The notes under the pieces are model-generated. The model was not told where the DNA came from, did no database searches, and saw only the letters and a program-made list of their open reading frames with translations. Position numbers and translations under genes: made by a program. From the NCBI GenBank assembly GCA_964626565.1, contig CAZVFX010000020.1, positions 6,152 through 70,151 of the forward strand: a stretch of 64,000 bases of DNA. The letters are read 5' to 3'. Origin of the DNA: an uncultured Myxococcales bacterium. GTDB taxonomy: Bacteria; Myxococcota_A; UBA9042; CAIXZC01. Shown in pieces: positions 1-16,611 of this stretch. Position 1 is the first letter of the stretch, and each line of letters begins with the position of its first letter.

Positions 1-312
1 TCCGAAGAAGGTCACCCGGGAAATCGACAGCTCCACCGGCCCCTGGTAGACCTCTCCGGTCTGCCCGTGTTTGATGTACACCTTCATGCGCACCGTCTCA
101 CCGGGTTGCGGGTTGCCCGGGAAAGTAGAAAACGTAACGTCAAATCCTTCCGCATCCGCCTCGATGACCATGGTGGGAATCTGGGGATAATCTTCTGAGT
201 AGAGGTAGTGGGGGAGACCGAGTTGATGGTGGGCTGAAGCAGGTGTGGGGCAGAGCAGCGTCAGGCACAGAATCCCAAACAGCGTCGAGCCGGTCCGGCT
301 AATTTCCGTCAT
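1..312 (-). CDS. Secreted protein of unknown function, 3' end truncated by window edge; last visible gene of the bc/nap operon
   Basis: Not in ORF track (no stop). Hand translation from ATG at 312 (ATGA overlap with napH stop): MTEISRTGSTLFGILCLTLLCPTPASA-HHQLGLPHYLYSEDYPQIPTMVIEADAEGFDVTFSTFPGNPQPGETVRMKVYIKHGQTGEVYQGPVELSISRVTFFG, open to base 1; signal peptide ending ASA. Confidence 0.8.
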   Translation of the reverse strand, partial: MTEISRTGSTLFGILCLTLLCPTPASAHHQLGLPHYLYSEDYPQIPTMVIEADAEGFDVTFSTFPGNPQPGETVRMKVYIKHGQTGEVYQGPVELSISRVTFFG

Positions 313-1190
313 CGTTTCACCCCATAGGCCAACGCACCCGGCTTGCACGCTGAGATGCACAAACCGCACTGATCGCAATCGGGCCCCAGTTCCTGTGTCA
401 TGGGCTGCAAATCGTACGGACAGACAGGGCCACACTCACCGCACTGCTCGCATCGGCGGCCGTCCCTGCTGATCCGCAGCAACCGGAACCGGGACAGGCC
501 CACGTAGACCGCGCCGCCCGGGCAGACGTAACGGCACCACCAGCGGCGCGACAGAATCAGTTCAATGAACAAGATGAGGCCCAGGAACAGCAGGCCGTTG
601 CCCCATACACCGTTGTAGGTCCTATAAAACAGCTCTCTGCTGATCACGGCTGGCGGATAAACCAGTGACAGCACCGGCATCCCCACCAGATACGCCATCA
701 GCAACCCTCCGCCCAGGACCCCGAATTTCATCCGGCCGTGGAACTTGGCATCGAGGGCTGGGTAGCCCAACTTCTCCAACAAAGAACGTAGCCGGTCATT
801 AATCTCCAGCAGCAAACTCATGGGGCACAGCCAACCGCAGTACACCCGCCCCAGAAGCAGAGTCAGCAACACCGGGATCAGCACGGAAAGCAGGAGCGGG
901 AGATACAGGGACATCGAGGTTACGGTGGACTCCACCAATGCCAGAGGGTCGGAGATCTTGTAACCGCCGACGTCGAGGGTCCACACGCTCCCCCGCACCG
1001 TATGAGTCAACTCCACAACCTCCTTGCGATCGCCACCTTTGAACAACGTGTGCAGTGCGGAAAGAAGCACGGATTTCTCAACAAACGCCTCGTCCCTCTG
1101 CTGGACCTTAATGCCATAGAGATTCACCATCGGCACGGCAATGATCAGGATCCAGACTGCCACCTGCACTGTTCGCCGGGCCGCTTGCAC
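309..1190 (-). CDS. napH: NapH/MauN-family membrane ferredoxin (quinol dehydrogenase membrane subunit)
   Basis: TM helices, GRVYCGWLCP and WWCRYVCP motifs, two C-terminal 4Fe-4S motifs (CEQCGECGPVCP, CDQCGLCISACK); directly downstream of napG. Confidence 0.88.
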   Translation of the reverse strand: MQAARRTVQVAVWILIIAVPMVNLYGIKVQQRDEAFVEKSVLLSALHTLFKGGDRKEVVELTHTVRGSVWTLDVGGYKISDPLALVESTVTSMSLYLPLLLSVLIPVLLTLLLGRVYCGWLCPMSLLLEINDRLRSLLEKLGYPALDAKFHGRMKFGVLGGGLLMAYLVGMPVLSLVYPPAVISRELFYRTYNGVWGNGLLFLGLILFIELILSRRWWCRYVCPGGAVYVGLSRFRLLRISRDGRRCEQCGECGPVCPYDLQPMTQELGPDCDQCGLCISACKPGALAYGVKR

Positions 1191-1194
1191 TGCG

Positions 1195-1785
1195 CTACTC
1201 CCTCCCGTCCGCGGTGGGAATCACGCGAATCGCCTGTGGATAGTGATAGCAGATACGCTCACACAGGCCGCACCCTACGCAGTTCTCGGCCACCACCTCT
1301 GGCCGCTCCCAGGCGCCTATGGTAATGGCCTTATTCTGCAAGGGACAAGCCCGGTAGCATATCCCGCAAATGCGGTCGTTGTACGAATAGCAAAGGTCCT
1401 TGTCGATAACAGCTTTGCCCATGCTCACGGTCCGGCCGATAGTCTCCAGGTCGTCGGGGATCGGTTGGATCGCTCCGGAAGGGCACACCTGCGTACACTT
1501 CATACACAAGGTGCAGCCCTGCTCACGGGCGACGATGAATGGTGTCCCCGATTTGGGCCCCGAACCGATATCAAAGAAGTTGAGGCACTGATTGGGGCAA
1601 ACATCGCCGCACAGCCCGCACCGCATGCACTTACGCACAAACTGTTCTTCTTCAAGGGAGCCGGGCGGGCGCAGGAAACGGAGCTTCCCGGGGCCGGGGG
1701 CCCACCGCACCACAGGCAGCAGCCCCAACCCCGCGAGTGCGGCGCCGTACTTGATGAACTGTCGTCGGTCGATTTTTGGTTTCAC
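1195..1785 (-). CDS. napG: NapG/MauM-family periplasmic polyferredoxin
   Basis: Tat motif DRRQFIK, LRPPGS motif, four Cys clusters (CMRCGLCGDVCP, CTLCMKCTQVCP, CGICYRACP, CVGCGLCERICY). Confidence 0.9.
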   Translation of the reverse strand: MKPKIDRRQFIKYGAALAGLGLLPVVRWAPGPGKLRFLRPPGSLEEEQFVRKCMRCGLCGDVCPNQCLNFFDIGSGPKSGTPFIVAREQGCTLCMKCTQVCPSGAIQPIPDDLETIGRTVSMGKAVIDKDLCYSYNDRICGICYRACPLQNKAITIGAWERPEVVAENCVGCGLCERICYHYPQAIRVIPTADGRE

Positions 1786-1788
1786 AAG

Positions 1789-4605
1789 TTAGACCCTGTC
1801 CGGAATCTTCTCCACCCGAGCCGCCAGCTTTTTGAAATCGGCCTGACCCGACACCGGGTCAAACCCACGATGTGCAACCGCATTGACCAGCCAGAAGTTC
1901 TTCTCCGGGTCCGCACTATCAGCTACCGACAGGTTCCACGGAGAGAATAGTTGCCCTTCCACCACCAGGTTTCTGGCCGGCCGCACGCGGCTGTCTAAAC
2001 CAACCGAAACCCGCGCCTCGTAGCTGCCCCTGCGGGTAGACACGCGCACCCAGTCTCCGTCTTTCAGGCCGTGCCGGGAAGCGTCCTGAGAGTGCATTTC
2101 GACGTATTGCTCCAGCACCAGCTTCCGGTTTGTTGGGGACCGGATAGTCTTGGCGGTATGGAAATGCTCATATACAACTCCCAGGTTCAGCCAGAAGGGG
2201 TACCTGTCCTTCGGCACTTCCGCCCCGGGAAGCTTCGCAAAATCAAAGTCGGGCATCTCAGGAGTCAACCCCCAGTCCCTGACTTTGACCAGCAACTCCG
2301 GGTGGTCGATAAGCAGGAAATCCTTGTCCACCCCAACCCTCCGCAAGTCCCCGATTACCTCCGGGTACTTTGAATAGTCCTGCTCGCACAGTTTCATGTT
2401 GGCCTTGCCGTTGGGGGTACGGAACGCCCCGTACGGCTTGTCCGCCCACCCTGCCTCCTGATTCAAGTACCGGCGGGGAGTGCCGCCGGCTCGGGCAATC
2501 TCGGCGGTCGGCGCAGGCCACTGAATGCCGCGCTTTTCCCGGATGACTGTGTAAGGCGACAGTTCCCTCTCTGCAGCCACCTTCACCAACTCCTTCCACA
2601 AACCCCAGAAACCACCCCCTTCCTTGTCCACCCGGGCCACGATCTCGTCGAAGTCGGTATAGGTCTCCCTCAGAATCCCGGAGAAATCGCAATCCGCGCC
2701 CCGGCTGGCCAGGGCCATTTCGATAAACACCTCTTCTACGTTGTAGAAACCCTGCTCGTTCTTGCTGTAGGGGAACATCTTGGTCCCTTCCAGGCCCAGC
2801 ATGTCCGCGATGTGAATCCCCTTGTCCACGACTATGTCCAGGTCGGGGATGCAGTTCGTTGGTGGCTCTGCGGCCTTATCCGTCACGAAGATTCGGCGCT
2901 CCGATTGAATATACGTCCCCCCACACTCCCCCCACGTGGCGGCCGGGAAAACCACATCTGCATACAAGTTGTTCGGTGCGTGTCGGTAGATCTCCTGGAC
3001 CACTACGAACATGTCGTTGAGCGCCGGCCGCACCAGGGTCTTGGTCTCGGGAAGGTCGATATGGGTCGCATAGATAAGGAACATGGCCCTAACTTTGCGC
3101 GGATCCGAGTCGGGCAAGAGGCCTCGCTCCATCATGCCCACGGCAAAACCGTGATTGGTGGAATCGGCGACCTGTTTCAGTCGCTCGGCCGGAATCTTCC
3201 AGACGTCGGAGAACAGCTCGATCCCCTTTTCGTTGTAGCCCCCTTTGCCCTTGAGCCCCTGGTTGAAGGGCAGGCGGCCGGTGAGCCCCCCGGTGAGACG
3301 CTCGCCCATGGCGTTGGGCTGGCCCGTCTGGGAGTGGGGCCCGCACCCGGGGCGGCCGATGTTGCCGGTGAGAAGGTGCAGATTGATTATACTGATCACG
3401 TTGTGCTGTCCGTGGATACTCTGGTTGTAGCCGATTCCCCACCAGGTGAGTACTCCGCCCCTTCCCCGCTCGTTGCCTTTGCGCGTGGCCGCAGCCCACT
3501 CGCCCGCGATCTTCCTCACGAATTCCGTACTCACACCCGTAACCTCCCCGGTCTTCTCCGGGTCGTACCTCGCCTTGATCCCCTCGATGTAAGCCTCGAA
3601 GCCCGACGTGTGCTTCTTCATGAAGTCCCAGGCAATGACGTCCGGATGCTCGGTGAGCAGAACAAACGCAAGGTTGTTCAGCAGAGTGATATCACTGTTC
3701 GGCTGTATCTGCGCATGGTAGGCGTTCTCCTCATAGGCATCCTCGAAACCTTGCACGGTGCCGGTTCGCCTGGGGTCCACCACCATGGTCGGGATTTTCG
3801 CCGACTTCTTGTAGTCGGCTGCCCGCCAGAAGATGATGGGATGAGCTTCCCTGGGGTTATGGCCCCAGAACGAGATAAAATCACACAATTCGACGTCGTC
3901 GTAGCAGGTGGGCGGAGTGTCGGAACCGAGGGTCTTGAAATAGGCGGTGACCGCACTGGTCATGCACATTCTGGCGTTGGCTTCCATGGTGTTGGACGCC
4001 ACCACCGCCTTCATGAACTTGTTCTCCAGATACTGACCCTCGAAGGTCAACTGACCGGAGCCGTAGAGGCCAACGCAGTTGCCGCCGTGGGTTTTCGCCA
4101 GGTGAGCGATCTTGTGGCTTGTCATTTCGCTCGCCGCCTCGTACGGGACCTTCACCCACAAGTCGTCGTCGAAAGCGCCCTTGGTGAGGGACGAAAAGCC
4201 CAGGTCCCCGTGTCCCGGCTTGTTCCACTCTTCCCAAGTGTCTTTTCGCACCAGCACTTCGGACAACCGGTCCACGTAAATCGGCTCGTTGGCCGTCAGT
4301 CCCTTGATGCACTGCATCCCTTTGTTGGTGGGATGGTTTTTGTCCGGCACCATGCCAACTATCTTGCCGTCTTCAACCTGGATCATCGTGCCGCATCCCA
4401 CACCGCAATAGGGGCAGGCGGAAAGGACGTTGCCGCCTCTGCCGGTCTGCACCTGCGCCTTGACAGTTCGCAACTCCTTGTCCTTGCTTCCCCCGCAACC
4501 GATGGTATTCGCCGCAGTAATGCTGGACATCGCTGCCGTAGCTTTTAGGAACTTCCGCCGGGTCAACGTCCAACGCTTCCCGCCATTCTTCTTTCCCTCG
4601 CCCAT
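1789..4605 (-). CDS. napA: Tat-exported bis-MGD molybdoenzyme, periplasmic nitrate reductase catalytic subunit (NapA/NarB-like)
   Basis: TRRKFLK Tat motif; CPYCGVGC...CIKG 4Fe-4S; NARMCMTSAV active-site segment with Cys ligand; GQPNAMG; C-terminal MGD domain (HFHT); adjacent napGH. Confidence 0.85.
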   Translation of the reverse strand: MGEGKKNGGKRWTLTRRKFLKATAAMSSITAANTIGCGGSKDKELRTVKAQVQTGRGGNVLSACPYCGVGCGTMIQVEDGKIVGMVPDKNHPTNKGMQCIKGLTANEPIYVDRLSEVLVRKDTWEEWNKPGHGDLGFSSLTKGAFDDDLWVKVPYEAASEMTSHKIAHLAKTHGGNCVGLYGSGQLTFEGQYLENKFMKAVVASNTMEANARMCMTSAVTAYFKTLGSDTPPTCYDDVELCDFISFWGHNPREAHPIIFWRAADYKKSAKIPTMVVDPRRTGTVQGFEDAYEENAYHAQIQPNSDITLLNNLAFVLLTEHPDVIAWDFMKKHTSGFEAYIEGIKARYDPEKTGEVTGVSTEFVRKIAGEWAAATRKGNERGRGGVLTWWGIGYNQSIHGQHNVISIINLHLLTGNIGRPGCGPHSQTGQPNAMGERLTGGLTGRLPFNQGLKGKGGYNEKGIELFSDVWKIPAERLKQVADSTNHGFAVGMMERGLLPDSDPRKVRAMFLIYATHIDLPETKTLVRPALNDMFVVVQEIYRHAPNNLYADVVFPAATWGECGGTYIQSERRIFVTDKAAEPPTNCIPDLDIVVDKGIHIADMLGLEGTKMFPYSKNEQGFYNVEEVFIEMALASRGADCDFSGILRETYTDFDEIVARVDKEGGGFWGLWKELVKVAAERELSPYTVIREKRGIQWPAPTAEIARAGGTPRRYLNQEAGWADKPYGAFRTPNGKANMKLCEQDYSKYPEVIGDLRRVGVDKDFLLIDHPELLVKVRDWGLTPEMPDFDFAKLPGAEVPKDRYPFWLNLGVVYEHFHTAKTIRSPTNRKLVLEQYVEMHSQDASRHGLKDGDWVRVSTRRGSYEARVSVGLDSRVRPARNLVVEGQLFSPWNLSVADSADPEKNFWLVNAVAHRGFDPVSGQADFKKLAARVEKIPDRV

Positions 4606-4628
4606 CTGAGATCCTCCTATTGTGTGCC

Positions 4629-6677
4629 TCAGTTTGGCCCCGGCCCGGATGAAACCGGATGGTGCCAGGTCCGAACGTAGGCCACGATGTCATTAATCTG
4701 TTCGGCCGAGAGTTCCTCGTATCCCTGGGCCCCTTTCGCCCAGGAACGCATGGCCGTGCCTTGCCTTCCCATGGCGATGGTTGCCTGCAGGAAACCGTTG
4801 GTGGCCGCTTCCAGGAACTCCGGGTTGTTCAACGCCGGGCCGTGCTCGCCTTCCCCATCAACGCCGTGACAACCGGCGCACATCCCCGCGTAAAGGTCTT
4901 TGCCCAACGATGGAGTGCCGGGAGTGATGTTCGTGTGGAGTACTTCCGGTTCGTGATGTTCACGGCTGCGGATAAATGCGACCAGGTCGCCAATCTCGTG
5001 ATCGTGAAGTTGTTCCAGCCCCTGCAGCCGCTTGCCCCAACTCACCATCGCGGTGTCCCGTCTCCCCCGGTAGATGGTCTCCCGGATGTATCCGTCGGAA
5101 GCAGCGGCAAGAAAATCCCTGTTCAGCAGCGCAGGTCCCACCGCACCCTGGCCGTGTTTCCCGTGGCAGCCGGCGCACATTCCTGCGAACATGCTTTCCC
5201 CCTCCTCCGCATCACCTTTGTTCAGTTCGAAGGATGGCAGCGCGGCAGGCACAGTCTGCCACGAGCGCATAAGCGTCAGCAGACCGGCTACTTCCCTGGC
5301 TGAAAGCCCGGACCATGACGGCATGGCCGTGTTCTCCCGTCCATCCACCATGGTCCGGAATAGGAATTTATCTGAGGCGACGGCCAGGAAATCCTGGTTG
5401 TTGAGCGATGGCCCGATACCCCCCTTCCCATCCGGGCCGTGGCAGATGCCGCAGCGAGAAGGATAGAGCCGCCTTCCCAACTCCTCGTCTCCATCGACTG
5501 CAGCCGTCGCCGCGTAACTGGGGGCGACCGGTCTCCAGCTACGCACGTACTCCACCAGGCCGTCCAACTCCGCCTCGGTGAGACCGGCCTGTTCCGCGGT
5601 CCAGGCTGGCATCAACCTGCCGCTGCGACCGTTGCGCACCGTGAGCTTCAGCATCTGTGGAGAAGCCACTGCCAGGAAGTCGGGGCTGTGGAGGGGCGGG
5701 GTGGCTTCCTCGAACTGTCGCAACTCCCTTCCTTCCCCCGCCGCACCGTGACAACTGGAGCAGAGCGCAGCGTAGGCCAGGGCACCGTCCATGGGCCTCC
5801 TCTTTCCCTTGAACTCCGCAATGGAGTCGAGGGACTGATAGAGCGCCGGGAATTCAAGACCTGTGAGCGCCATGGTAAACGAGATGAGAGCGGTCAAGTC
5901 GTCTTCATCGAGGTCGAGGGCAGGCATCTTGCTGCCCGGCGACACACGCTCCGGAGCCACGAAGTGCTCGCGGAGCCACGTCCGCTCCGTACGCTCTCCC
6001 TCCACATGAGTGAAATCGTACTCGTGCTTCGTCTTGAGGCCCTGCCTGGTAAGTTCGGGCCCGAGGGTGCCGCCCGTTCCTCGCACAACGTGACAGCCGA
6101 GGCAACCGTTTTCCAGGAACAACTTCTTTCCCCGGGCCAGTACATCCGCGCCGGGCAGTTCCTGTTGAGGGTCGAATACCGCCATGTGGCATTTGCCACA
6201 GGAAAGCTGTGCATAGGCCATAGGCAACACGGGGTAGTCCCAGTGTATGCCCGGCGACCTCGCGAATGCCTGCCGCCGGCTCAGCGCCCTCCCCTGCCCG
6301 CCATGACACACAGTGCAACCGAACTTCTCGATGGGGTGGTGGAGCAGGTAGTCGCCGCTGTGGGCGCGGTGAGGCAGATCCGCGTCCGCCATGGAAGGAT
6401 TCTCCAGGCCGCCGTGGCACGTAATACAGCGGTCAACTCTCCCCAACTCGGGAAGCAGATTCTGTTGGATGGCGATGGGGAAATCCTCGGCGGCTTCAAT
6501 CTGGGCGTCGGTCTTGGCGGCCGCCCTGAGTTTCTCCTTGAATTCCAAGCGATAGCTCTTCCACTCCCGGAGCGCCAACTCCTCATAAGCGGCCAACCCG
6601 AAGAAGAGGATACAAACCAGGCTGCCGCCGATGGTCACCCACTTATAGAAACGTTCCAGTCGGTGCATGCTTGCCAC
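4629..6677 (-). CDS. Membrane-anchored octaheme cytochrome c (cytochrome c subunit of bc complex)
   Basis: N-terminal TM; eight CxxCH: CITCH, CTVCH, CGKCH, CLGCH, CSSCH, CGICH, CAGCH, CAGCH; GTG start, alternative ATG at 6668. Confidence 0.9.
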   Translation of the reverse strand: MASMHRLERFYKWVTIGGSLVCILFFGLAAYEELALREWKSYRLEFKEKLRAAAKTDAQIEAAEDFPIAIQQNLLPELGRVDRCITCHGGLENPSMADADLPHRAHSGDYLLHHPIEKFGCTVCHGGQGRALSRRQAFARSPGIHWDYPVLPMAYAQLSCGKCHMAVFDPQQELPGADVLARGKKLFLENGCLGCHVVRGTGGTLGPELTRQGLKTKHEYDFTHVEGERTERTWLREHFVAPERVSPGSKMPALDLDEDDLTALISFTMALTGLEFPALYQSLDSIAEFKGKRRPMDGALAYAALCSSCHGAAGEGRELRQFEEATPPLHSPDFLAVASPQMLKLTVRNGRSGRLMPAWTAEQAGLTEAELDGLVEYVRSWRPVAPSYAATAAVDGDEELGRRLYPSRCGICHGPDGKGGIGPSLNNQDFLAVASDKFLFRTMVDGRENTAMPSWSGLSAREVAGLLTLMRSWQTVPAALPSFELNKGDAEEGESMFAGMCAGCHGKHGQGAVGPALLNRDFLAAASDGYIRETIYRGRRDTAMVSWGKRLQGLEQLHDHEIGDLVAFIRSREHHEPEVLHTNITPGTPSLGKDLYAGMCAGCHGVDGEGEHGPALNNPEFLEAATNGFLQATIAMGRQGTAMRSWAKGAQGYEELSAEQINDIVAYVRTWHHPVSSGPGPN

Positions 6678-6683
6678 TCCTCC

Positions 6684-8198
6684 TCAATGCCCGGGCCAGT
6701 GCGCAGGGGACCAGTAGAAATCCCAATTCGGTCCCCTGAAATAGACGCCCATGATGGTCAGGATGATGAAACCCACCAGGAAACAGGTAAACAAGCCAAT
6801 TGCGGCGTCGCGAGTCGACCCGCTCCGCTTGAGCAGAAACAACGACCAGAGCGCATACGCCACGACAATCGCCGACCCTGGATTGATGAAGGTGATAACG
6901 ATCTGAGGAATCTGAGGAATCCAGTCCCTCAGCCAGCCGAATCGGACCGTGAATGCCAGCAGGGCCAAGGTGAAAATGGTGCCGGCCACCACCGAGACCC
7001 CCAGCGCCCTTTTCCCGCTGGGGCCGGTGAACCACTCCCCCACTCCGGCCTCCTCCCGGTCGAGGTAGGGGATCAGCATGAGACCGAGGACAACTACCGT
7101 GGGAATCCCGATACCACCCATGAATGCCGAATATGACACCAATTCCTGCAGTCCGAGGAAATACCACGGCGCCTTAGCCGGATTCTCAGGAATTGCAGGG
7201 TTGGCCAACTCTTTCAGCGGGGCGTCAAAGAAATAGGCCAGAACCATCATCCCACCCAGGCACAGCATAAATACCGCGACTTCAGCCCAGATGGCAGTGG
7301 GCCAGGACATTACGGTGTTGTCCGGCCCGCGATCAAGTTGGGGGGAATCATCCTTCACCAGCTCCATCAGACCATAGGTCTTGCCGGCCTCGGGCGCGCC
7401 CACCGGGTCTTCTCCCTCGTCGTCGGGCCTGCTCAAGCCTCCGTCCTTTCGGATTCGCCAGAAATGCACGCCGATGAGTATGACGCAAGTCAAGGGGAGG
7501 ATCATGACGTGCAGAAGATAGAACCTGGTCAGCGCCTCCTGGCCCACCATGGTTCCGCCGATGAGCACCTCCTTGATCAATCCACCAATATCGAACCAGG
7601 CGGTGATTCCCACGGCATCAGTGAGTTCACGTGGACTGGCCGCGATGTTGGCACCCACGGTAATGGCCCAGTATGCGAGTTGATCCCAGGGGAGCAAATA
7701 GCCGGTGAAGCTCAGCATGAGCGTAACCGCCAGCAGAAGCATCCCGATAACCCAGTTGAATTTTCGCTGCCGCTTGTAGGAGCCGGTGTAGAAGACCCTC
7801 ACCATGTGCAGGAGAACAACCAGCACCATGCCGTGAGCGGCCCATCGATGGATGTTTCGCATGTACCGGCCGGCGCCGACCACGAAGGTGATGTCCTTGA
7901 CATTGTTGTAGGCCAGAGCCGTTGTGGGATTGTAGTAGAACATGAGCATGATGCCGGAGACACACAGCAGTAGAAACAGAAAAAACGACATGAGGCCCAG
8001 GCCCATGGTGAACCACGGTTTGAGGCTGTGTCGGTGAATCCGCACCGAATGGATGTGCAGGAAGAAGTTCTGAAAAATCGCCTGGGACCGCTCCCGGTCA
8101 GACCGGGGCGGCCATGGATGGCGCAGGAGCGAACCGGTGAATGCGCTACCGGCCCCCCTCAGGTTGGAAAAGAATGTCTTCAGTCCATTGTCAGCCAT
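6684..8198 (-). CDS. qcrB: Cytochrome b of Rieske/cytb complex (b6-type N-terminus fused to subunit IV, extra C-terminal TMs)
   Basis: Heme-ligand His pairs in RNIHRWAAHGMVLVVLLHMVRVF and LLHVMILP...GVHFWRIRKDGG; GYLLPWDQLAYWA; Qo-type KAPWYF. Confidence 0.92.
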   Translation of the reverse strand: MADNGLKTFFSNLRGAGSAFTGSLLRHPWPPRSDRERSQAIFQNFFLHIHSVRIHRHSLKPWFTMGLGLMSFFLFLLLCVSGIMLMFYYNPTTALAYNNVKDITFVVGAGRYMRNIHRWAAHGMVLVVLLHMVRVFYTGSYKRQRKFNWVIGMLLLAVTLMLSFTGYLLPWDQLAYWAITVGANIAASPRELTDAVGITAWFDIGGLIKEVLIGGTMVGQEALTRFYLLHVMILPLTCVILIGVHFWRIRKDGGLSRPDDEGEDPVGAPEAGKTYGLMELVKDDSPQLDRGPDNTVMSWPTAIWAEVAVFMLCLGGMMVLAYFFDAPLKELANPAIPENPAKAPWYFLGLQELVSYSAFMGGIGIPTVVVLGLMLIPYLDREEAGVGEWFTGPSGKRALGVSVVAGTIFTLALLAFTVRFGWLRDWIPQIPQIVITFINPGSAIVVAYALWSLFLLKRSGSTRDAAIGLFTCFLVGFIILTIMGVYFRGPNWDFYWSPAHWPGH

Positions 8199-8224
8199 GT
8201 CACCTTCTCCTCCTCACAGTCCGC

Positions 8225-8707
8225 TCATGCAAGGAGCGCGTCATCCCGGCTTACCGTGCGGCCGGCGTCCACAATCAACTGCCCGTCAGGGCTGAGGCTC
8301 ATCTTCAACCAGTCAAGGGCCCTGGGCGCTGGTCCCGACATTACTTCGCCCTCCTCGTCAAAGTTTGACCCATGGCAGGGGCACTTCAACGCACCGTCTC
8401 GCAACGCGACCACACACCCTAGATGGGTGCAGATGGCGGACAAAGCCCTGAAGCCGAAGTGGTCGTTGCGAACAAACACGTTCCGCCCCGGTATCAACGT
8501 GATGGAATCGGGCTGAAAGTCAGCAGGGAATCCCACCTTGAACCGGGTTGAGGGCTCGTTGAGTACTTTGGGTAGAGGAAGCTGCGCCGTCCCCATAAAC
8601 GCCATGCACCCGGCGCCGGCCACCGAGGCGACCGCCAGTTTGCCCAGGAAATCCCGCCGATCCATAATGGTGTCGCCATCCGCTGCCTTGCCTGATTTCT
8701 TGCTCAT
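8225..8707 (-). CDS. qcrA: Rieske 2Fe-2S protein of bc complex
   Basis: Tat motif DRRDFL + TM; CTHLGC and CPCHGS boxes; GPAPRAL. Confidence 0.95.
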
Positions 8708-10584
8708 TTGATAACCTCCTGGAACCGAAAGGACTCCATGGTGATGGCGTCCACCGGGCAGCGCTCAGAGCACAGCCCGCATCGAATACACCGGGTCTCA
8801 TCCTTGATGATCGCGCCTGCTCCTCCCGGCCCCGCATCGCCGTAGCGGGCCGCAACCAGTTGGGCCAGCGACTCATCTCCCTCCAGCCGGCCCACGGACA
8901 CCAGCCGCAAGCAGCGCTCCGGGCATACATCGGCGCATCCGCCACAAAGGATGCAGCGATCGCCGTTGAATATGGTGTTCACCGCGCAATCAAGGCAGCG
9001 AGCGCCTTGCCTTTCCCCCTGCTCCTCTCCGAATCCAAGCTCTACCACCGCCTCCATGGAGCCCTTGCGCTCCTCAGCAGACATGGCCGGAATCTCCTCC
9101 CTCGGCAGGGACTCGAAGCCGGCTTCCCGCGAATAGCCCTTCACCATGGAGTGAACGCATGTCGACTCCAAACCCAGTTCGACTCCGGTGAGGTGCTTGT
9201 AGATGGCACGGGCAGCCTGCTTACCGCTGGCTATGGCGTCAATCATCAGGCCAGGACCCAGGGCTACATCACCAGCCGCAAAGACCCCTTCCCCCCGGGT
9301 CACGACCTTCGTATCGTCCAGTTGCAGCAATCCACGATCGGTCAACTCAACGTCTGCCGCGTCAACGAAAGACAGGTCGACCGTCTGCCCGACGGAAAGA
9401 AAGACCTGGTCAGCCTCCAGAACCATACTTTCGGCTTCATCAAAAACCGGTGCGAAACGGCCGTCATCACCGAAAACCCGAGAGCAACGCACGAACTTCA
9501 CCCCTCGCGCACGCCCCGCATCATCCACCAGGATCTCCCGGGGCCCCCAGGAATTGTGCCTGATGACACCCTCTTCCTCGCCTTCCTCAATCTCCACAGA
9601 ATCAGCGGGCATTTCGTCGAGAGATTCCAAGCTGACCAGATGCACCTGCTGCACACCCGATTGCCGGACCAGGGTCCGGGACACGTCGTAGCCGGTTTGC
9701 CGCACCAGGGTCCGGGCGACATCGTAGGCGACGTTGCCGCCACCGATGACAACCACCTTTTCCCCCAGTTCATGCCCCTGTCCCAACGCTATGTCCCGTA
9801 GCAGGTCGACGCCGCCGATAACCCCAGGAGCATCTATGTTGGGCAACGGAATCTTGCGCGATTTCTTGGCTCCTACAGCGATTAGCACAGCGTCGTGGCT
9901 TTGACGCAGTTCGGCCAAAGTCACGTCCTTTCCCACCGCTACATTGCAGCGGATTTCAGTACCCATGGCCTCAATAACGCTGACCTCCGCGCGAATTAGC
10001 TCCCGCGGCAGACGATACGACGGCACCCCCAGGTACAGCATCCCCGCCGGTACCGGCTCCATTTCGTAGATGACGGGCTTGACGCCCATGAGGCACAGGT
10101 CGTGGGCCGCGGCCAGCCCCGCAGGGCCCGAGCCGATAATGCCCACACTCTTCCCAGACCCTTCCACTGGCAAATCGACGTCATTGAAGTGACGCAGGAG
10201 GTTCTCGGTTACCTCATAATCCGCGCAATCTGCGGCCGCGTCCCAGTTGCGCCGGACGTGGCCCAACTCCTTGCCCCCCTCCAGCCCGGCCTCGGGGCCG
10301 AATCGAGAACTCACAAAACGCTTGAGAGCGCGAATCGAAACTGCCTCATCGATGTCGGCCCGCCGGCAAGCCGCCTCGCAAGGTGCGCCGCAAATGCGAC
10401 CACAAATGGAGGCGAGGGGATTGGGAGCACGGGCAATGAGGTACGCCTTTTCGTAGTCGCCTTGGGCGATGGCCCGCACGTACCCCCTGGAATCGGTGCG
10501 CACCGGGCACTCCGCCTGGCACTTGATCTGTTCCCTCCAATACGCCCGGTCGGGCACCCGCACCGTAAACCTCTCAGCAGCCAT
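8704..10584 (-). CDS. GltD/NfnB-like FAD, NAD(P)-binding Fe-S oxidoreductase with C-terminal ferredoxin domain
   Basis: CQAECP and [15 protein letters not shown] clusters; GSGPAG and GGGNVA dinucleotide motifs; FAAGD; [12 protein letters not shown] and [12 protein letters not shown]; no signal peptide; ATGA overlap with Rieske gene. Confidence 0.9.
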
Positions 10585-10636
10585 GACCGTGTCCCCGTTC
10601 TGCAGTCACCCCCCATCTATCAGATGGGAGTTGTCT

Positions 10637-10665
10637 ATTCTGGCCCCGCAGGGGCCTTTCGTCAA
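10637..10665 (-). promoter_or_regulatory. Candidate sigma70 promoter of the bc/nap operon
   Basis: Minus strand TTGACG-N17-CAGAAT about 50 nt upstream of the ATG at 10584. Confidence 0.4.
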
Positions 10666-10762
10666 CCGCAAGTTGACAAATGGACATGTTTATCCCTAGT
10701 TAGCTACTCAACTGAGCTCTTTCGAGATAGACACGAGGTGCAGCTTGGGAACGATTCAGCCG

Positions 10763-11560
10763 TTAGGCAAGGTCATATACTGCGGTATTTCGGTCATTCA
10801 GGTGAAAAACTAAAGATTCCTTGACCGTCTCGGGGCTGATGGTCGCGGTGATCATCTGCTCGCCGCCTCTGGCTTGCGCGATTACCCGGGCGCAGGGGTC
10901 CACTACCATGGAGTGGCCGAAGTAGTAGTTGCCGTTGGCGTCGGCGCCTACTGAGTTCACTGCGATGAAGTGAATCTGGTTGTCGTAGGCCCTCGCCCGG
11001 TTGGTTAGAGACCAGATGTCGAAGTCACGCAAGAGCGCCGACGGCCGGATCACTACGTCCGCACCCTTCAGCGCCAGAGTCCGCACCAACTCGGGGAAAT
11101 CACCATCGTAGCAGATAACCATCCCGATCTTTGCAAACGGGGTGTCAAAAACCTCAACCTCGGTGCCCGGCGTCGTGTAGATCTGCTCCGTTGGGAAGGG
11201 ATGGGTCTTGCGGTACACGCCGATGATGTTACCGACGTCACCGATGAGAATCGACGCGTTGAAAATTACGCCCCCCGTCCCCTGCTCCCAGATGGGCCAG
11301 ACCACGTGCACGCCGTGGTGGGCCGCCCGTGCCTGAATCGCCTCGGTCCACGCCCCGGGAATCGGTTGCAGCAGCTTCCAGAATTCCTCTTTGGGCATGC
11401 CCGGATGGAAGCCGGTAGTGATGGTTTCGGGAAACACCACCAGGTCCGGCGAATGCTCCGCCACCGCCCGGTCCAGCCAGTCAATGCACTTGGTGATGTT
11501 GGCATCGGCATCCAGCGGCTTCACCGCAAACTGAATGCAGCAGACTTTGAACTCTTTCAT
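10763..11560 (-). CDS. Carbon-nitrogen hydrolase (nitrilase superfamily)
   Basis: Glu-Lys-Cys triad in FPETITTG, YRKTHPF, ICYDGDFPE; start reset to ATG 11560 (MKEFKVCC), just after the cyclase stop. Confidence 0.92.
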   Translation of the reverse strand: MKEFKVCCIQFAVKPLDADANITKCIDWLDRAVAEHSPDLVVFPETITTGFHPGMPKEEFWKLLQPIPGAWTEAIQARAAHHGVHVVWPIWEQGTGGVIFNASILIGDVGNIIGVYRKTHPFPTEQIYTTPGTEVEVFDTPFAKIGMVICYDGDFPELVRTLALKGADVVIRPSALLRDFDIWSLTNRARAYDNQIHFIAVNSVGADANGNYYFGHSMVVDPCARVIAQARGGEQMITATISPETVKESLVFHLNDRNTAVYDLA

Positions 11561-11562
11561 GG

Positions 11563-12327
11563 CTAGTGTTCCTCGAAGGCCACCACCCGGCAGAATGCAG
11601 ACTCGCCATCCACGAACCGCCACGGGAAGCAACCGATCTTGATGCGTTTGTTCAACACCTCGTCGATCTGGCCGCCGATGTTCTCCACGTGAATCACGCC
11701 GTCCGGGAACAACGCCAGGTGCATCAACTGGTAATCTTTGGTGCTGAAGAAATCGTCCAGCCCCTTGCCGTAGTTCTTCTGCAACGCGGCGTCCGCCTCA
11801 ATGGCCAGGTGCGGCATCCAATCCTTGATCTTCGTATTGAACGGATGGTCCGCAGACCCGCAATCGACCCCGATCCACTTGAGCTTCAGGTCCCGCGCCC
11901 AGTCGGCAAATTCCATGGTCGGACCCGGGTGTTTGCACATGTAGCGCACTTCGTCAGCCTCCGGCTGGTCCCACCCGTAACGGTGGTACCCGGTATTAAT
12001 TATAAGAATGTCCCGGGGCTTCACCTCTACCCGATCGGTAATATCTTTCGAAGTGTAGACTCCATAGTCCACCGCGATGTCGGAAAGGTCCACGACTACC
12101 GCGTCGCCGTACAGCTCCTCCAGCGGCAGCGACGCGATGTCCTTGCCCGCACCGTAAAAGTGCAGCGGGCCGTCCAGGTGCGTGCCCACATGATTCGAAG
12201 TGGTGATCAACTGCCCGTTGGCGCCGTTGGGCGCCAGGCGTTTGAAGAATTTTACCTGGAGCGGCTCATAAGTTGGCCACGGCGGAGTCAGGATGCCGCA
12301 TCTTTGTGACAGGTCGTACAGTTTCAT
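11563..12327 (-). CDS. Cyclase / kynurenine-formamidase-family metal hydrolase
   Basis: HVGTHLDGPLHF (HxGTHxDxPxHF), HVENIGG, C-terminal RVVAF. Confidence 0.92.
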   Translation of the reverse strand: MKLYDLSQRCGILTPPWPTYEPLQVKFFKRLAPNGANGQLITTSNHVGTHLDGPLHFYGAGKDIASLPLEELYGDAVVVDLSDIAVDYGVYTSKDITDRVEVKPRDILIINTGYHRYGWDQPEADEVRYMCKHPGPTMEFADWARDLKLKWIGVDCGSADHPFNTKIKDWMPHLAIEADAALQKNYGKGLDDFFSTKDYQLMHLALFPDGVIHVENIGGQIDEVLNKRIKIGCFPWRFVDGESAFCRVVAFEEH

Positions 12328-12339
12328 TCTTTACCCCCT

Positions 12340-13548
12340 CTACTCGCGATAGTCGTTCAGGTTCAACAGCTTCCCGTGGCTTATCACCGCCGCGGGTTCG
12401 GCATGATTACGAAGTGCATCTGTGATGTTGTTTTCCTTCAGCACCACCAGGTGAGCAGTCATTCCCACGTCCAGGCCAAAATCCAATACGTTGATGCACT
12501 TGGCAGCCGCGGTGGTAACCATGTCGTACAGCACATGCATCTCCTCTACGGTGGTCATCCATAGAAGGTGGGAATTCAGAAAGGCCACTTCCAGCATATT
12601 GTTGCGGCCGTACGGGTAGTAAGCGTCGGAGATGTCGTCTTGTCCCAGGCAAACAAGGTTGCCTTCAGCAAGCAGCTCTTTCACCCGGGCGTGAAGCGGC
12701 CCGGTGTGCGGGTCGCTCACAACCCCCATCTTCGCCATCTTCAACAGCGCGGACAGCTTCTGAAAATAGGGAGTTGGATACAGCGCCATGGCCCGGGCGT
12801 GATGGGCCAGCCCCCTTCCCTCCATGCGATTCTCGATAAGCGCGGTGGCCAGCATTTCCGTAGTTTTGAGACCCGCGTCGCCAGCATCATCCACCAACAT
12901 GGAGACGTCAGTGTTAAACTCCTTGGCCAGGGCCACCATCTTGTCCACGTGGTCCTGCTCATCGGCTTCGGTAAACTCGATCCACGGGATGCCGCCAACC
13001 ACGTCAGCGCCCAGCTCCATGGCCTCCCGCACCAGCTCCGCCGTCCCCGGCTCCCGGGCCACGCCATCCTGGGGGAAAGCCACCACCTGCAGGTCAACGA
13101 TCCCCTTGAACTCATCCCGCACCTTCAGCAGCGATTTCAGCCCGATGAGCTGCGCCTTACTGTCGATATCGGCAAACGCCCGAATGTGCAGGTTGCCGTT
13201 GAGCGCCGCCAGCTTCACAGCCCTGCGCACATTGGGCACAATCCACTCTTCGTCGTACTGCTCCTTGACCTTGGCCGCGGACTCGATCGCGGTCATCGCC
13301 TTGCCCATGCCGTCTGCATGGTAGTCGGCCAGCGCGGCTTCGGACATCTTCTCCAGCGTATACACTTTGCACAGGTGCAGGTGAGTGTTCACAAACGACT
13401 CGGTGACCAGCCCGCCTCCCGCATCCACCACTTCCGCGTCCGGTGCCGAAATCCCCTCTTCGATGGCCGCAATCCGGCCGTCATTTATGAGGATGTCCAC
13501 AACTTCGCCGGTGCGACGCAACCGGCCGTTCTTGATGAGAATGCTCAT
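12340..13548 (-). CDS. Metal-dependent amidohydrolase, cytosine/creatinine deaminase-like
   Basis: THLHLCK (HxH), VVAFPQDG, VVGGIP, HHARAM, LGQDDISDAYYPYG, GMTAHLVV. Confidence 0.88.
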   Translation of the reverse strand: MSILIKNGRLRRTGEVVDILINDGRIAAIEEGISAPDAEVVDAGGGLVTESFVNTHLHLCKVYTLEKMSEAALADYHADGMGKAMTAIESAAKVKEQYDEEWIVPNVRRAVKLAALNGNLHIRAFADIDSKAQLIGLKSLLKVRDEFKGIVDLQVVAFPQDGVAREPGTAELVREAMELGADVVGGIPWIEFTEADEQDHVDKMVALAKEFNTDVSMLVDDAGDAGLKTTEMLATALIENRMEGRGLAHHARAMALYPTPYFQKLSALLKMAKMGVVSDPHTGPLHARVKELLAEGNLVCLGQDDISDAYYPYGRNNMLEVAFLNSHLLWMTTVEEMHVLYDMVTTAAAKCINVLDFGLDVGMTAHLVVLKENNITDALRNHAEPAAVISHGKLLNLNDYRE

Positions 13549-13564
13549 TATTTACCCCCCCAAT

Positions 13565-14965
13565 TCATGCCTGGTCTTTTCTGGCAAAAGCTGCGAGCGC
13601 CGCCTCGAACATCTCCCGCGGCGCATACAACAGGCCGGCGCCGACCTGGCCAATGCCCGGCTCTTTGTGCGCGATGCCCGTATTGATAATCGGTGTCGTG
13701 CCCGTCTCCACCACTTTTCGAATGTCCACCCCCACCGGGGTCCCCGCGAAATCCAGCCCGGGCATCTTGTAATGAAGATGCCGGCCGACACAAATTCCAT
13801 ACATCTCACGGGTGTATCTGATCGCGTCCTCCGGCGTGCCACCCACGAACTGCACAATGGCCGGCGCGGACGCCATGGCGAACCCGCCAATACCCGCCAC
13901 CTCCGAAATGGTCGAATCGCCCAGATCCGGATTGGCGTCCTCCTGAGAAAAGCCGGCAAAGAACAGCCCTTCCGGCATGCCCGCCGGCGCGGTGAACCAC
14001 CTGTCTGAAAGACCAGCCACCCTGATGCCGATTTCGGTACCGTTGCGCGCCATGGCGCTCACCAACGTGCTGTTCTCCAACCCCAACACCGTGTCCGCCA
14101 CAGCCTTGCACGCAGCCATTGATACGTTGAGGTAGAAATGCACGTTCCCGGAGATGAACTCGGCTATCTGCCCGATGGTCTTCTTGCGCAAGCCGGTGTT
14201 GAGCATCGCGGCGGTCAAGTCCCGCAGCAGCATGGTGGTAGCAGCCACGTTTCGATTGTGGCACTCATCGCCCATCTGCAACGCCTGGGCGGTGAGGTTC
14301 CTCAGGTTGATACCGCCCGACGCTGCCACAGCCTTCTTCAACGCGGGCGCCAGCACCCTCTCCATCCATTTCAGCCGGCGAATCACTTCAGAGTCGTAGG
14401 CACCGAATCTGAGCACTTTGCCCAGCCCCTCGTTGAGGGTGCAATAGGCGGTGTTTCCGAATGTCTCGTTGCGCACCACCCACACGTACATGGAAGGGGA
14501 AACCACCCCGGCCATAGGGCCGACGGTGGAGTGATGATGACAGGGGACCAACTTCACCCGCCCCTTCGTTACCAGTCGCTCCGCGGCCGCGCACGAGCGC
14601 GCCTTGCCCTCGTACATAAGCGCGCCCATGACTGCTCCCCGCACCGGGCCACACATGGCCTCCCATGCTACCGGCGGACCGGCGTGGAGAATCGTGTCGG
14701 GCGTCATACCGGGGATGACATCGAGCGCTCGCGCCACGTCCACCAGCACAGCTTCACTGTCGATAAGCCGCTTGACCCCTTCCTCGTTGGCCCGGTCGAT
14801 GGCTTCGTGGTCCAGAGAATCCAGCAATTCGGCTGCGGGAAGCGGCGGTTTCCACTCCACCTGCACCGCGGGGACTCCCTGGTGGCGAAGCGATTCACCG
14901 AACGAATCGAGGCCGAACGACACCACCTTGAGATCATCGCCCAGAAGTTTCGCCCACTTGCTCAT
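13565..14965 (-). CDS. yahG: DUF1116 protein, YahG-type (AllG/YlbE paralog family)
   Basis: N-terminal V.QVEWKPP segment as in YahG; ILHAGPP, PCHHHSTVGPMAG, LNEGLGKVLRFGA, GDECHNRN, NPDLGDSTISE, INTGIAHKEPGIGQVGAG. Confidence 0.88.
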   Translation of the reverse strand: MSKWAKLLGDDLKVVSFGLDSFGESLRHQGVPAVQVEWKPPLPAAELLDSLDHEAIDRANEEGVKRLIDSEAVLVDVARALDVIPGMTPDTILHAGPPVAWEAMCGPVRGAVMGALMYEGKARSCAAAERLVTKGRVKLVPCHHHSTVGPMAGVVSPSMYVWVVRNETFGNTAYCTLNEGLGKVLRFGAYDSEVIRRLKWMERVLAPALKKAVAASGGINLRNLTAQALQMGDECHNRNVAATTMLLRDLTAAMLNTGLRKKTIGQIAEFISGNVHFYLNVSMAACKAVADTVLGLENSTLVSAMARNGTEIGIRVAGLSDRWFTAPAGMPEGLFFAGFSQEDANPDLGDSTISEVAGIGGFAMASAPAIVQFVGGTPEDAIRYTREMYGICVGRHLHYKMPGLDFAGTPVGVDIRKVVETGTTPIINTGIAHKEPGIGQVGAGLLYAPREMFEAALAAFARKDQA

Positions 14966-16518: not shown

Positions 16519-16582
16519 GCTGGTCACCCTCGGAGCCTTGGGAGTGTTTCCGGCGCCCGCGTTTTGACTCCGTTCAGTAAAC

Positions 16583-16611
16583 TTCCCAACGTTTGGCAAG
16601 TCAAGTAGAAT
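16583..16611 (+). promoter_or_regulatory. Candidate sigma70 promoter for the Sel1 lipoprotein gene
   Basis: TTCCCA-N17-TAGAAT in the divergent intergenic gap. Confidence 0.35.

Follow-up and report, generated by a model that had tools for sequence, protein, structure and literature searches.

We analysed a 64-kb stretch of contig CAZVFX010000020.1 from an uncultured Myxococcales bacterium (the window), in which a minus-strand operon joins a flavoprotein-bearing Rieske/cytochrome b (bc) complex to a periplasmic, Nap-like molybdoenzyme. Eight consecutive minus-strand open reading frames (ORFs) fill the leftmost 10.6 kb. In gene order they encode a flavoprotein of 626 amino acids (positions 8704-10584), a Rieske [2Fe-2S] subunit of 160 amino acids (8225-8707), a fused cytochrome b of 504 amino acids (6684-8198), an octahaem cytochrome c of 682 amino acids (4629-6677), a molybdopterin oxidoreductase of 938 amino acids (1789-4605), a NapG-like periplasmic ferredoxin of 196 amino acids (1195-1785), a NapH-like membrane protein of 293 amino acids (309-1190) and a secreted protein, of which the first 104 of 190 codons are present (1-312) before the gene runs off the window. 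Pfam and NCBIfam searches agreed with the domain types that had been stated for the eight products in a first reading of the DNA from its letters (the sequence-only reading). The assignments were made with these two databases for the flavoprotein and the Rieske subunit, and with motifs in addition for the molybdoenzyme and the NapG-like and NapH-like proteins; alignment, hydropathy and a PDB search were used for cytochrome b, and a count of CxxCH motifs together with Pfam for the octahaem protein. The intergenic distances are −4, 26, 6, 23, 3, 4 and −4 nt in gene order. Both −4 overlaps read ATGA in the sequence, one of them where the start of the Rieske gene overlaps the stop of the flavoprotein gene, and AGGAGG ribosome-binding sites lie upstream of the Rieske and molybdoenzyme genes. 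ORF coordinates and direct reading thus confirmed the earlier description of eight same-strand genes that lie at most 26 nt apart and overlap twice in ATGA.

The operon extends past base 1 of the window. The molybdoenzyme sequence was found identical on 11 metagenome contigs, two of which (L001 and L002) reach 10 kb past that base. Beyond it they carry the end of the 190-amino acid protein, a 194-amino acid NapG-like ferredoxin, a 510-amino acid NapH-like protein and then a convergent gene, so the operon has ten genes. Searches by tblastn with E. coli NapB, NapC and NapD gave no match at E<1 in the 64-kb window, L001 or L002, and none of the ten operon proteins has a NapB or NapD Pfam domain. 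The absence of napB, napC and napD from the operon, observed in the sequence-only reading, was borne out at this threshold, and the 10 kb added past the left end rule out that napB or napC lies just beyond the window, which that reading had named as an outcome that would undo it. It had overlooked that there is a second NapG/NapH-like pair and that the bc unit is modular; both points are described below.

The first gene encodes a cytoplasmic iron-sulfur protein of the type that binds flavin adenine dinucleotide (FAD) and nicotinamide adenine dinucleotide or its phosphate (NAD(P)); it has no signal peptide. An NfnB/GltD-type core is preceded by an N-terminal Fer4_20 domain and followed by a C-terminal 2x[4Fe-4S] ferredoxin domain, and both Rossmann motifs, GxGxxG (residues 151-156) and GGGxxA (281-286), as well as about 20 Cys residues are invariant. 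The best PDB matches are the NfnB-type modules of Stn and Nfn, followed by GltD. We considered that the gene might be an unrelated GltD-type neighbour of the bc genes; this was ruled out by the ATGA overlap and by linkage across metagenome loci. A metagenome scan with the flavoprotein returned 80 loci (L096-L175), and the Rieske and cytochrome b genes followed the flavoprotein gene in 45 of the 45 loci with at least 2.5 kb of downstream sequence. The flavoprotein is probably a physical subunit of the bc complex, and we infer that it exchanges electrons with the b-haem chain on the cytoplasmic face.

The Rieske subunit has a twin-arginine translocation (Tat) motif (RRDFL), an N-terminal anchor and the cluster motifs CTHLGC and CPCHGSNF. 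Its best PDB matches are two Kuenenia entries, 9rk4 (8e-23) and 9rk3 (2e-16), which their Tyr/Phe and Trp content would assign to Kuste4569 and Kustd1480; b6f Rieske proteins followed at 1e-13. CPCHGSNF retains the potential-raising Ser, and the Tyr is replaced by Phe, as in Kustd1480, for which a Rieske potential of +335 mV was measured (PMC12954380). Cytochrome b consists of a b6-type four-helix part fused to a subunit-IV-like part, the latter visible in the hydropathy profile as five hydrophobic segments after helix D. The haem ligands His117/131 are 14 residues apart (13 between) and His230/245 are 15 apart (14 between), which is b6-type spacing. A PDB search with this protein put cytochrome b6 on top; the best NCBIfam matches were ExtP and ExtQ, both below cut-off. 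The Qo motif reads APWY, within a segment (NPAKAPWYFLG) that is invariant in six clade members, and this motif places the protein in the APWY clade. In the alignment the CxGG motif of haem cn is absent, the position reading TMGLG across the clade, and two residues ahead of helix A near the N terminus, His48 and His55, are invariant.

The cytochrome c subunit has CxxCH motifs at residues 84, 121, 160, 192, 306, 409, 501 and 600. An N-terminal helix anchor is followed by three haems set close together, then a SoxX/FixO-like haem and lastly four domains of class I; the multihaem cytochromes c of relatives have 6-10 haems. A dihaem class-I cytochrome c from Shewanella, encoded there next to a related molybdoenzyme, aligned twice, with residues 401-571 and 491-672, at 33-37% identity. 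The four C-terminal class-I domains of the octahaem protein therefore correspond to two tandem copies of the dihaem cytochrome.

These subunits resemble the two complexes of Kuenenia stuttgartiensis, Kuste4569-4574 and Kustd1480-1485, in having a Rieske protein, a b6-like cytochrome b and a five-helix subunit-IV-like part (PMC12954380; Kartal et al. 2013, as cited there). Going by the published description, both Kuenenia complexes also share a hexa- or octahaem cytochrome c in place of c1/f and an operon-encoded cytoplasmic NAD(P)-binding iron-sulfur flavoprotein (PMC12954380). An extra b haem at the Kuenenia dimer interface has been placed by an AlphaFold 3 model, with an N-terminal His as ligand (Kuste4571 His43, Kustd1481 His62; PMC12954380), and by region, His48 and His55 of the window protein fall where that haem is modelled. 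The differences are that cytochrome b and subunit IV are fused in the window and separate in Kuenenia, that the window host is not an anammox bacterium, its DNA having about 60% GC and no anammoxosome context, and that the exergonic partner in the operon is a molybdoenzyme rather than a HAO-like octahaem protein. A CxGG haem cn motif was inferred for planctomycete members of the family (PMC5600118). The link to anammox complexes made in the sequence-only reading thus stands on the Rieske match, the cytochrome b architecture and the presence of the flavoprotein, and does not extend to the CxGG motif. Kustd1480-1485 is still without a proposed partner reaction, and in Kuenenia bifurcation to NAD(P)+ is itself a hypothesis (PMC12954380).

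The molybdoenzyme carries an N-terminal [4Fe-4S] Molybdop_Fe4S4 domain (Pfam) and a Tat motif that is kept across its clade (TRRKFLK in the window), with a lipobox-like Cys after the signal in the subclade of the window. It had been called NapA-like, and in its active site that description holds. Compared with the NapA proteins of D. desulfuricans and E. coli, it has both the Cys-Met pair of the Mo-ligand region and TGQPNA: the former region reads NARMCMTSAV (NPRLCMASAV or NARHCMASAV in NapA, ARLCH in FdhF), and the second motif reads SQTGQPNAMGE (SLTGQPNACG in NapA, LRGQNNVQG in FdhF). The PNAMG-R spacing is similar to that of assimilatory NasA/NarB. The protein is not a canonical NapA, however. 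It shares 26-28% identity with E. coli NapA and scored 321.6 bits against the NapA equivalog NF010055 (cut-off 904) and 298.6 bits against TIGR01706 (cut-off 930.55); these values rule out an orthologous NapA. The NCBIfam FdhF-type model scored it about as high as the NapA equivalog, and a PDB search matched FdhF and NapA equally well, with HDCR FdhF on top. A formate dehydrogenase is nevertheless ruled out by the active site, which has Cys-Met and TGQPN, not Cys/Sec-His and RGQNN. No NCBIfam equivalog cut-off is passed by the clade, and a long branch parts it from E. coli NapA in a neighbour-joining tree. By its sequence the enzyme belongs to a distinct clade within the Nap/Nas/Fdh group.

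This clade is large. A protein search gave 5299 proteins at E<=1e-20 among 8000 candidates tested, and the 120 best proteins listed are about 880-940 amino acids long with at least 57% identity to the window enzyme. In a scan of GTDB species genomes at least 578 molybdoenzyme loci were found, in Gammaproteobacteria, Alphaproteobacteria, Zetaproteobacteria, Myxococcota, Bdellovibrionota, Hydrogenedentota, Omnitrophota, Verrucomicrobiota and Sericytochromatia; one of the closest relative genomes is labelled Calditrichaceae, and the cultured hosts are two species, Shewanella gelidimarina and S. benthica.

The proteins encoded downstream form a characteristic set. The 196-amino acid NapG-like ferredoxin has four [4Fe-4S] motifs and a Tat motif (RRQFIK) and is 35% identical to E. 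coli NapG; the 293-amino acid NapH-like protein has four transmembrane helices, two CX3CP motifs and two C-terminal [4Fe-4S] motifs and is 25% identical to E. coli NapH. Their best family matches are NapG and NapH, with scores below the subfamily cut-offs (113.7 vs 178.85 and 129.2 vs 213.05). The 190-amino acid protein, complete at L002 14294-14866, has a signal peptide and a C-terminal membrane helix as anchor, and its N terminus after cleavage follows an invariant pattern (HH.LGLPHY.Y..YPQ.P). It matched no Pfam or NCBIfam family. An AlphaFold 2 model showed an immunoglobulin-like beta sandwich (pLDDT 88), for which the fold matches were weak (E about 1e-3) and of the generic beta-sandwich kind, namely H. 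pylori CrdA, PmoD and FetP. Because the best low-rmsd (root-mean-square deviation) matches are periplasmic copper-binding sandwiches, the model hints at a metal site formed by the N-terminal histidines. Some homologues of this protein carry Ca. Poribacteria names at NCBI. The second NapG-like ferredoxin and the 510-amino acid NapH-like protein are encoded at L002 14856-16969. The ferredoxin resembles E. coli NapG as much as the first one does; no twin-arginine motif was found in its 194 residues, so it is probably cytoplasmic. The 510-amino acid protein has about ten hydrophobic segments. Taken together, the module shares with E. coli napFDAGHBC a Tat-exported enzyme with a molybdenum-bis(molybdopterin guanine dinucleotide) centre, an N-terminal [4Fe-4S] cluster and a Cys-Met site, as well as NapG and NapH homologues. 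It differs in lacking NapB, NapD and NapC, in having a class-I c-type haem domain as donor, and in its extra NapG/NapH-like pair and anchored 190-amino acid protein.

The ten operon proteins were then run by tblastn against the 80 best molybdoenzyme loci. In these loci the molybdoenzyme was almost always accompanied by NapG, NapH, the 190-amino acid protein, the 510-amino acid protein and the second ferredoxin, with the NapG-like gene adjoining the molybdoenzyme gene in 76. NapB and NapD were found in none of them (E<=1e-4), and NapC/NirT was found in 37. Neighbouring genes include those for Crp/Fnr regulators, MoaA and protoglobin-PAS sensors, and NnrS is also encoded near the operon in relatives. 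The bc genes were absent from 73 of the 80 loci, nearly all of which have a dihaem class-I cytochrome c gene directly upstream of the molybdoenzyme. The order in Shewanella is dihaem class-I cytochrome c, molybdoenzyme, napG, napH, a 202-amino acid protein, a 513-amino acid protein, a ferredoxin and NapC/NirT. This bc-free system, apparently unnamed, is present at L064 9298-18111 (S. gelidimarina), at L083 (S. benthica) and in most of L012-L086, and it is open to experiment since two cultured Shewanella species carry it. NapGH and the second NapG/NapH-like pair are not specific to the bc architecture, as they occur with or without the bc complex; they probably provide a parallel quinol entry or support maturation.

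With the bc genes present in only 7 of the 80 best genome loci, one might suppose that they encode a general complex III that merely lies upstream of a nap-like operon and has no dedicated coupling to it. The arrangement of the genes and its persistence make this the least probable of the explanations considered here, to the point that we give it hardly any weight. The gap between the octahaem and molybdoenzyme genes is 23 nt with a ribosome-binding site and no terminator-like site within it, and the cytochrome c subunit of the bc complex incorporates the dihaem partner of the molybdoenzyme. In close relatives (L007-L011 and L087, with 64-76% molybdoenzyme identity) the flavoprotein, Rieske, cytochrome b and multihaem cytochrome c genes adjoin the molybdoenzyme gene, and more distant loci (L013, L018, L092, L124, L135 and L164, with about 60% identity) retain the same neighbours. 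The linkage persists where the bc subunits are only 39-50% identical to those of the window (L013 and L018) and where the order is rearranged and the molybdoenzyme gene comes last (L010). No NapC was found in any of these close or distant bc-bearing loci. One of them, L009 (OZ252239.1, a 3.78-Mb chromosome of a metagenome-assembled genome, MAG), has its cytochrome b, octahaem, molybdoenzyme and 510-amino acid protein genes split into shorter ORFs, probably through long-read frameshift errors rather than as real pseudogenes. In a neighbour-joining tree rooted on E. coli NapA, which has no support values, the bc-linked molybdoenzymes form two adjacent basal groups and are not scattered; this basal grouping suggests an old, vertically kept association. 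The co-conservation of bc and nap genes that the sequence-only reading had called for is therefore seen over deep divergence, both in the loci and in the tree.

The same conclusion was reached from the side of the flavoprotein, of which there are many homologues. Six look-ups of flavoprotein genes in context all gave the order flavoprotein, Rieske, cytochrome b, multihaem cytochrome c and then a molybdoenzyme. In three of them (P0130, P0198 and P0219) the molybdoenzyme was Nap-like; in the other three (P0225 from Terriglobales, P0209 and P0218) it was a type II enzyme of the dimethyl sulfoxide reductase family with beta, haem-b gamma and NarJ-like subunits. Among the metagenome loci with at least 7.5 kb downstream, 30 of 31 lead from the flavoprotein-bc genes into a periplasmic molybdoenzyme: 27 have a PcrA/pNar-like type II enzyme and three a Nap-like one. 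The remaining locus (L150 8735-18142) has no molybdoenzyme; it encodes NnrS, the flavoprotein, Rieske, cytochrome b, a 425-amino acid multihaem cytochrome c, a 504-amino acid protein without a Pfam family and, after it, a pair of small proteins whose domains are cupredoxin-like or CarboxypepD_reg-like. The alpha subunit of the type II enzyme passes TIGR03479 and scored 981 bits to PcrA (4ydd, 5e7o), 546 to NarG and 257 to NxrA. This PcrA-like version, with a hexahaem cytochrome c, comprises L088-L091 and 27 of L096-L175 and is more common than any other in the sampled metagenomes; Terriglobales MAGs are among its carriers. From the pattern of partners, the flavoprotein-bc unit appears to be a module dedicated to periplasmic reductases of very-high-potential oxyanions.

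Which oxyanion the window enzyme reduces has to be judged from the same evidence. Nitrate is probably its substrate, on the strength of the active-site motifs, which are those of Nap/Nas. Chlorate, perchlorate, iodate or selenate would leave the wiring unchanged, and such a substrate would account for a clade that falls under every NCBIfam equivalog cut-off and lacks NapB and NapD in 80 of 80 loci; the sister architecture has a PcrA-like enzyme (981 bits to the perchlorate reductase 4ydd/5e7o), and C. jejuni NapA reduces chlorate and perchlorate too (PMC12769810). We nevertheless regard another oxyanion as rather unlikely. Besides its motifs, the clade occurs in marine lineages of sulfur and iron oxidisers and in Shewanella, together with NapC, NapG, NapH and Fnr-type regulators, and nitrate is by far the commonest such acceptor in the source habitats.

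The operon may encode a self-contained respiratory chain that starts at membrane quinol and ends at a nitrate-type molybdoenzyme in the periplasm, with a low-potential branch to NAD(P)+; we see the chances of this as evenly balanced. Quinol would be oxidised at the Qo site of the anammox-type Rieske/cytochrome b6-like complex. The Rieske cluster would hand the high-potential electron to the anchored octahaem cytochrome c, whose C-terminal class-I domains would dock on the Tat-exported molybdoenzyme for nitrate reduction. In this scheme the bc complex would take the place of NapC, and the octahaem subunit that of the free dihaem cytochrome c; with the bc complex standing in for NapC, the step from quinol to the acceptor would therefore be proton-motive. 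The routing of electrons from quinol to nitrate is well supported by comparison with relatives. The route from Rieske through octahaem cytochrome c to the molybdoenzyme had been proposed in the sequence-only reading, and the homology of the octahaem C-terminal domains to the bc-free dihaem cytochrome c lends it independent support. The low-potential electron would travel via the two b haems to the cytoplasmic face and from there through the iron-sulfur clusters and FAD of the flavoprotein to NAD(P)(H).

For this last branch the likeliest direction would be reduction of NAD(P)+, in a quinol-based bifurcation powered by the positive nitrate couple, as proposed for Kuenenia. Bifurcation toward NAD(P)+ is a serious possibility that we place a little below an even chance. 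With potentials of −75 mV for menaquinol, +420 mV for nitrate and −320 mV for NAD(P)+, the split is arithmetically exergonic by about 125 mV per electron. Bifurcation also fits because all molybdoenzyme partners seen are candidate reductases of very-high-potential oxyanions, and the affinity to Kuenenia together with the high Rieske potentials of its complexes would speak in its favour.

A number of points weigh against this scheme. Bifurcation is exergonic only with a low-potential quinone. The hosts of the soil version (Terriglobales) are likely heterotrophs with no obvious need for NAD(P)H from quinol. The CxGG motif inferred for the planctomycete complexes is missing from the window cytochrome b; the molybdoenzyme lies far under the NapA equivalog cut-offs (321.6 vs 904) and has Ile at the position of Met308 of D. 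desulfuricans NapA. The closest solved relatives of the flavoprotein, the GltD, NfnB, Stn and Nfn modules, bind NADPH as donor, and since modules of the GltD/NfnB type usually oxidise NADPH, input of electrons is as natural as output. Finally, Kao and Hunte tied the APWY Qo motif to reversed operation (PMC4122944).

The flavoprotein structures raise the reading, equally simple as bifurcation, that the flavoprotein is a built-in NAD(P)H dehydrogenase. Electrons would then run from NAD(P)H through FAD and iron-sulfur clusters to the b haems and to quinone at Qi, the quinol being reoxidised at Qo, which would make the complex and its reductase together a proton-motive NAD(P)H:nitrate oxidoreductase that contains a Q loop of its own. 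Such a device would be compatible with any type of quinone and with the probably heterotrophic life of many hosts (for example those of the Terriglobales loci), and catabolic genes of the amidohydrolase, AllG and FdrA types lie near the operon. It would leave unexplained why the bc clade is paired solely with very-high-potential acceptors; other NAD(P)H dehydrogenases are normally present in cells, and the Rieske potentials of the nearest relatives, above +300 mV, suit bifurcation (PMC12954380). We consider NAD(P)H input somewhat unlikely.

The Qo motif bears on the opposite direction of flow at the other end of the chain. If the molybdoenzyme oxidised a substrate such as nitrite, its electrons and those of NAD(P)H would reduce quinone via a reversed Qo site; Kao and Hunte tied the APWY clade to reversed flow and cited the p-cresol methylhydroxylase cluster of Geobacter metallireducens (PMC4122944). 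The partners argue for reductases: the active site is of Nap/Nas type, the others are PcrA/NarG-like, and the type II enzyme scores 546 bits to NarG vs 257 to NxrA. Fnr/Crp regulators adjoin, the bc-free relatives use NapC, which is a quinol dehydrogenase, and spending NAD(P)H to drive nitrite electrons into quinone would bring no clear benefit. Reverse operation is accordingly very improbable, and quinol oxidation at Qo remains the preferred direction.

Each ingredient of the proposed chain has a precedent, in the anammox complexes described above and in three further systems. In the locus of Caldithrix abyssi (Cabys_2564-2556), Rieske and cytochrome b genes likewise accompany napA, napG and napH, and napB and napC are missing; the authors put forward the Rieske/cytochrome b complex as the source of electrons for Nap (PMC5317091). 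Unlike the window, it has a tetrahaem NapM and an epsilon-Hao gene, and no NAD(P) flavoprotein was reported (PMC5317091). In C. jejuni, which has NapGH as the window does, proton-motive QcrABC-dependent respiration through NapAB was shown genetically and a Q cycle was demonstrated (PMC6195509). There the genes lie apart from one another, NapA, NapB and NapD are of the canonical kind, the Qcr complex is an ordinary one without flavoprotein, and no bifurcation to NAD(P)+ was proposed (PMC6195509). Given C. jejuni (PMC6195509) and Caldithrix abyssi (PMC5317091), the suggestion in the sequence-only reading that an energy-conserving Nap architecture was uncharacterised is overstated. The periplasmic Nar enzymes of haloarchaea and Methanoperedens also tie an oxyanion molybdoenzyme to a Rieske/cytochrome b complex, genetically or functionally (PMC4683180, PMC3509893), and the nar cluster of Methanoperedens encodes a long NapH-like protein with nine helices and small anchored periplasmic proteins that recall the 510- and 190-amino acid proteins of the window (PMC4683180). 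Their enzyme differs in being type II (NarG-like), and no flavoprotein subunit was reported (PMC4683180, PMC3509893); the closest parallel to them is the PcrA/pNar-like version (L088-L091 and the 27 metagenome loci), not the window.

By motif and description the bc unit itself corresponds to the APWY clade (PMC4122944) and to clade G' of subfamily G (PMC5600118), which share the APWY Qo motif, a long fused cytochrome b and a large conserved operon. Of the former it was written that "none ... characterized" (PMC4122944), and of clade G' that it belongs to "large conserved operons ... of an unknown function" (Dibrova et al. 2017, PMC5600118). NAD(P)-iron-sulfur oxidoreductases were noted alongside subfamily G (PMC5600118), and neither paper reports a link to a molybdoenzyme (PMC4122944, PMC5600118). 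In the literature searched, the coverage of which is incomplete, we found no description of a Rieske/cytochrome b complex that bears a flavoprotein and whose genes lie with those of a Nap-like or PcrA/pNar-like enzyme, nor of the Nap-like clade without NapB and NapD and with its accessory genes.

The only gap of more than 26 nt upstream of the eight genes is a minus-strand leader with a probable promoter region (10585-10762), recognised by consensus matches alone. It contains a sigma-70-like site, likewise a consensus match only (TTGACG-17-CAGAAT, minus strand, 10665..10637), and the −35 hexamer is overlapped by an inverted repeat, GTCAAC-N5-GTTGAC, at 10661-10677. Two more palindromes are present, GGCCCC-TGC-GGGGCC at 10642-10656 within the promoter spacer and CCCATCT-GAT-AGATGGG at 10610-10626 just ahead of the flavoprotein start. 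The three could be regulator sites or an RNA hairpin; none of them matched the FNR consensus in its orientation.

Further upstream, genes on the same strand (10763-16599, minus) encode a CN-hydrolase, a cyclase, an amidohydrolase, AllG and an FdrA-like protein, in what looks like a cluster for the catabolism of nitrogen compounds of the allantoin or oxamate type; it accompanies the operon on the identical contigs. Several large proteins of eukaryote-like or repeat type are also encoded: a 1577-amino acid WD40 protein (27193-31926, plus strand), an FG-GAP/ASPIC protein (31933-34038, minus), a caspase-domain protein (46482-48695, minus) and a 1413-amino acid lamin-tail-domain protein (58833-63074, minus) in the window, and a 1314-amino acid Cys-rich repeat protein on L002 (16979-20923, minus). 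A scan of ten large ORFs for taxonomic marker genes found none.

The pairing of the bc complex with Nap-like enzymes is widely distributed in many uncultured bacteria and uncharacterised. For the reductase, these results mean that a large family of proteins annotated as "NapA" in marine Gammaproteobacteria, Alphaproteobacteria, Zetaproteobacteria and Myxococcota forms a separate system that lacks NapB and NapD and has accessory genes of its own, which bears on how the potential for nitrate reduction is inferred from metagenomes. For the bc complex, the issue is whether the low-potential electron of a Rieske/cytochrome b complex can reach NAD(P)+ instead of going round a Q cycle. The case for this has so far rested on slow-growing anammox bacteria, and for one Kuenenia complex the only clue to the driving reaction is the nature of a HAO-like subunit from its gene cluster. 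In the window, a complex of this kind shares an operon with a reductase of a defined soluble substrate, and it recurs in many lineages, so that the likely exergonic half-reaction can be named. Bifurcation thereby becomes directly testable, with the formation of NAD(P)H from menaquinol and nitrate as a simple assay and a wider choice of source organisms. We tentatively suggest, as an idea more likely to need revision than not, that flavoprotein-bearing Rieske/cytochrome b complexes are widespread quinol-based bifurcating enzymes, not an anammox peculiarity, and are hard-wired to reductases of very-high-potential oxyanions. If this is true, marine lineages would have Nap-like partners, soil Acidobacteria and others would have PcrA/pNar-like ones, and nitrate reduction would drive the reduction of NAD(P)+ from menaquinol, giving these bacteria a respiratory route to NAD(P)H.

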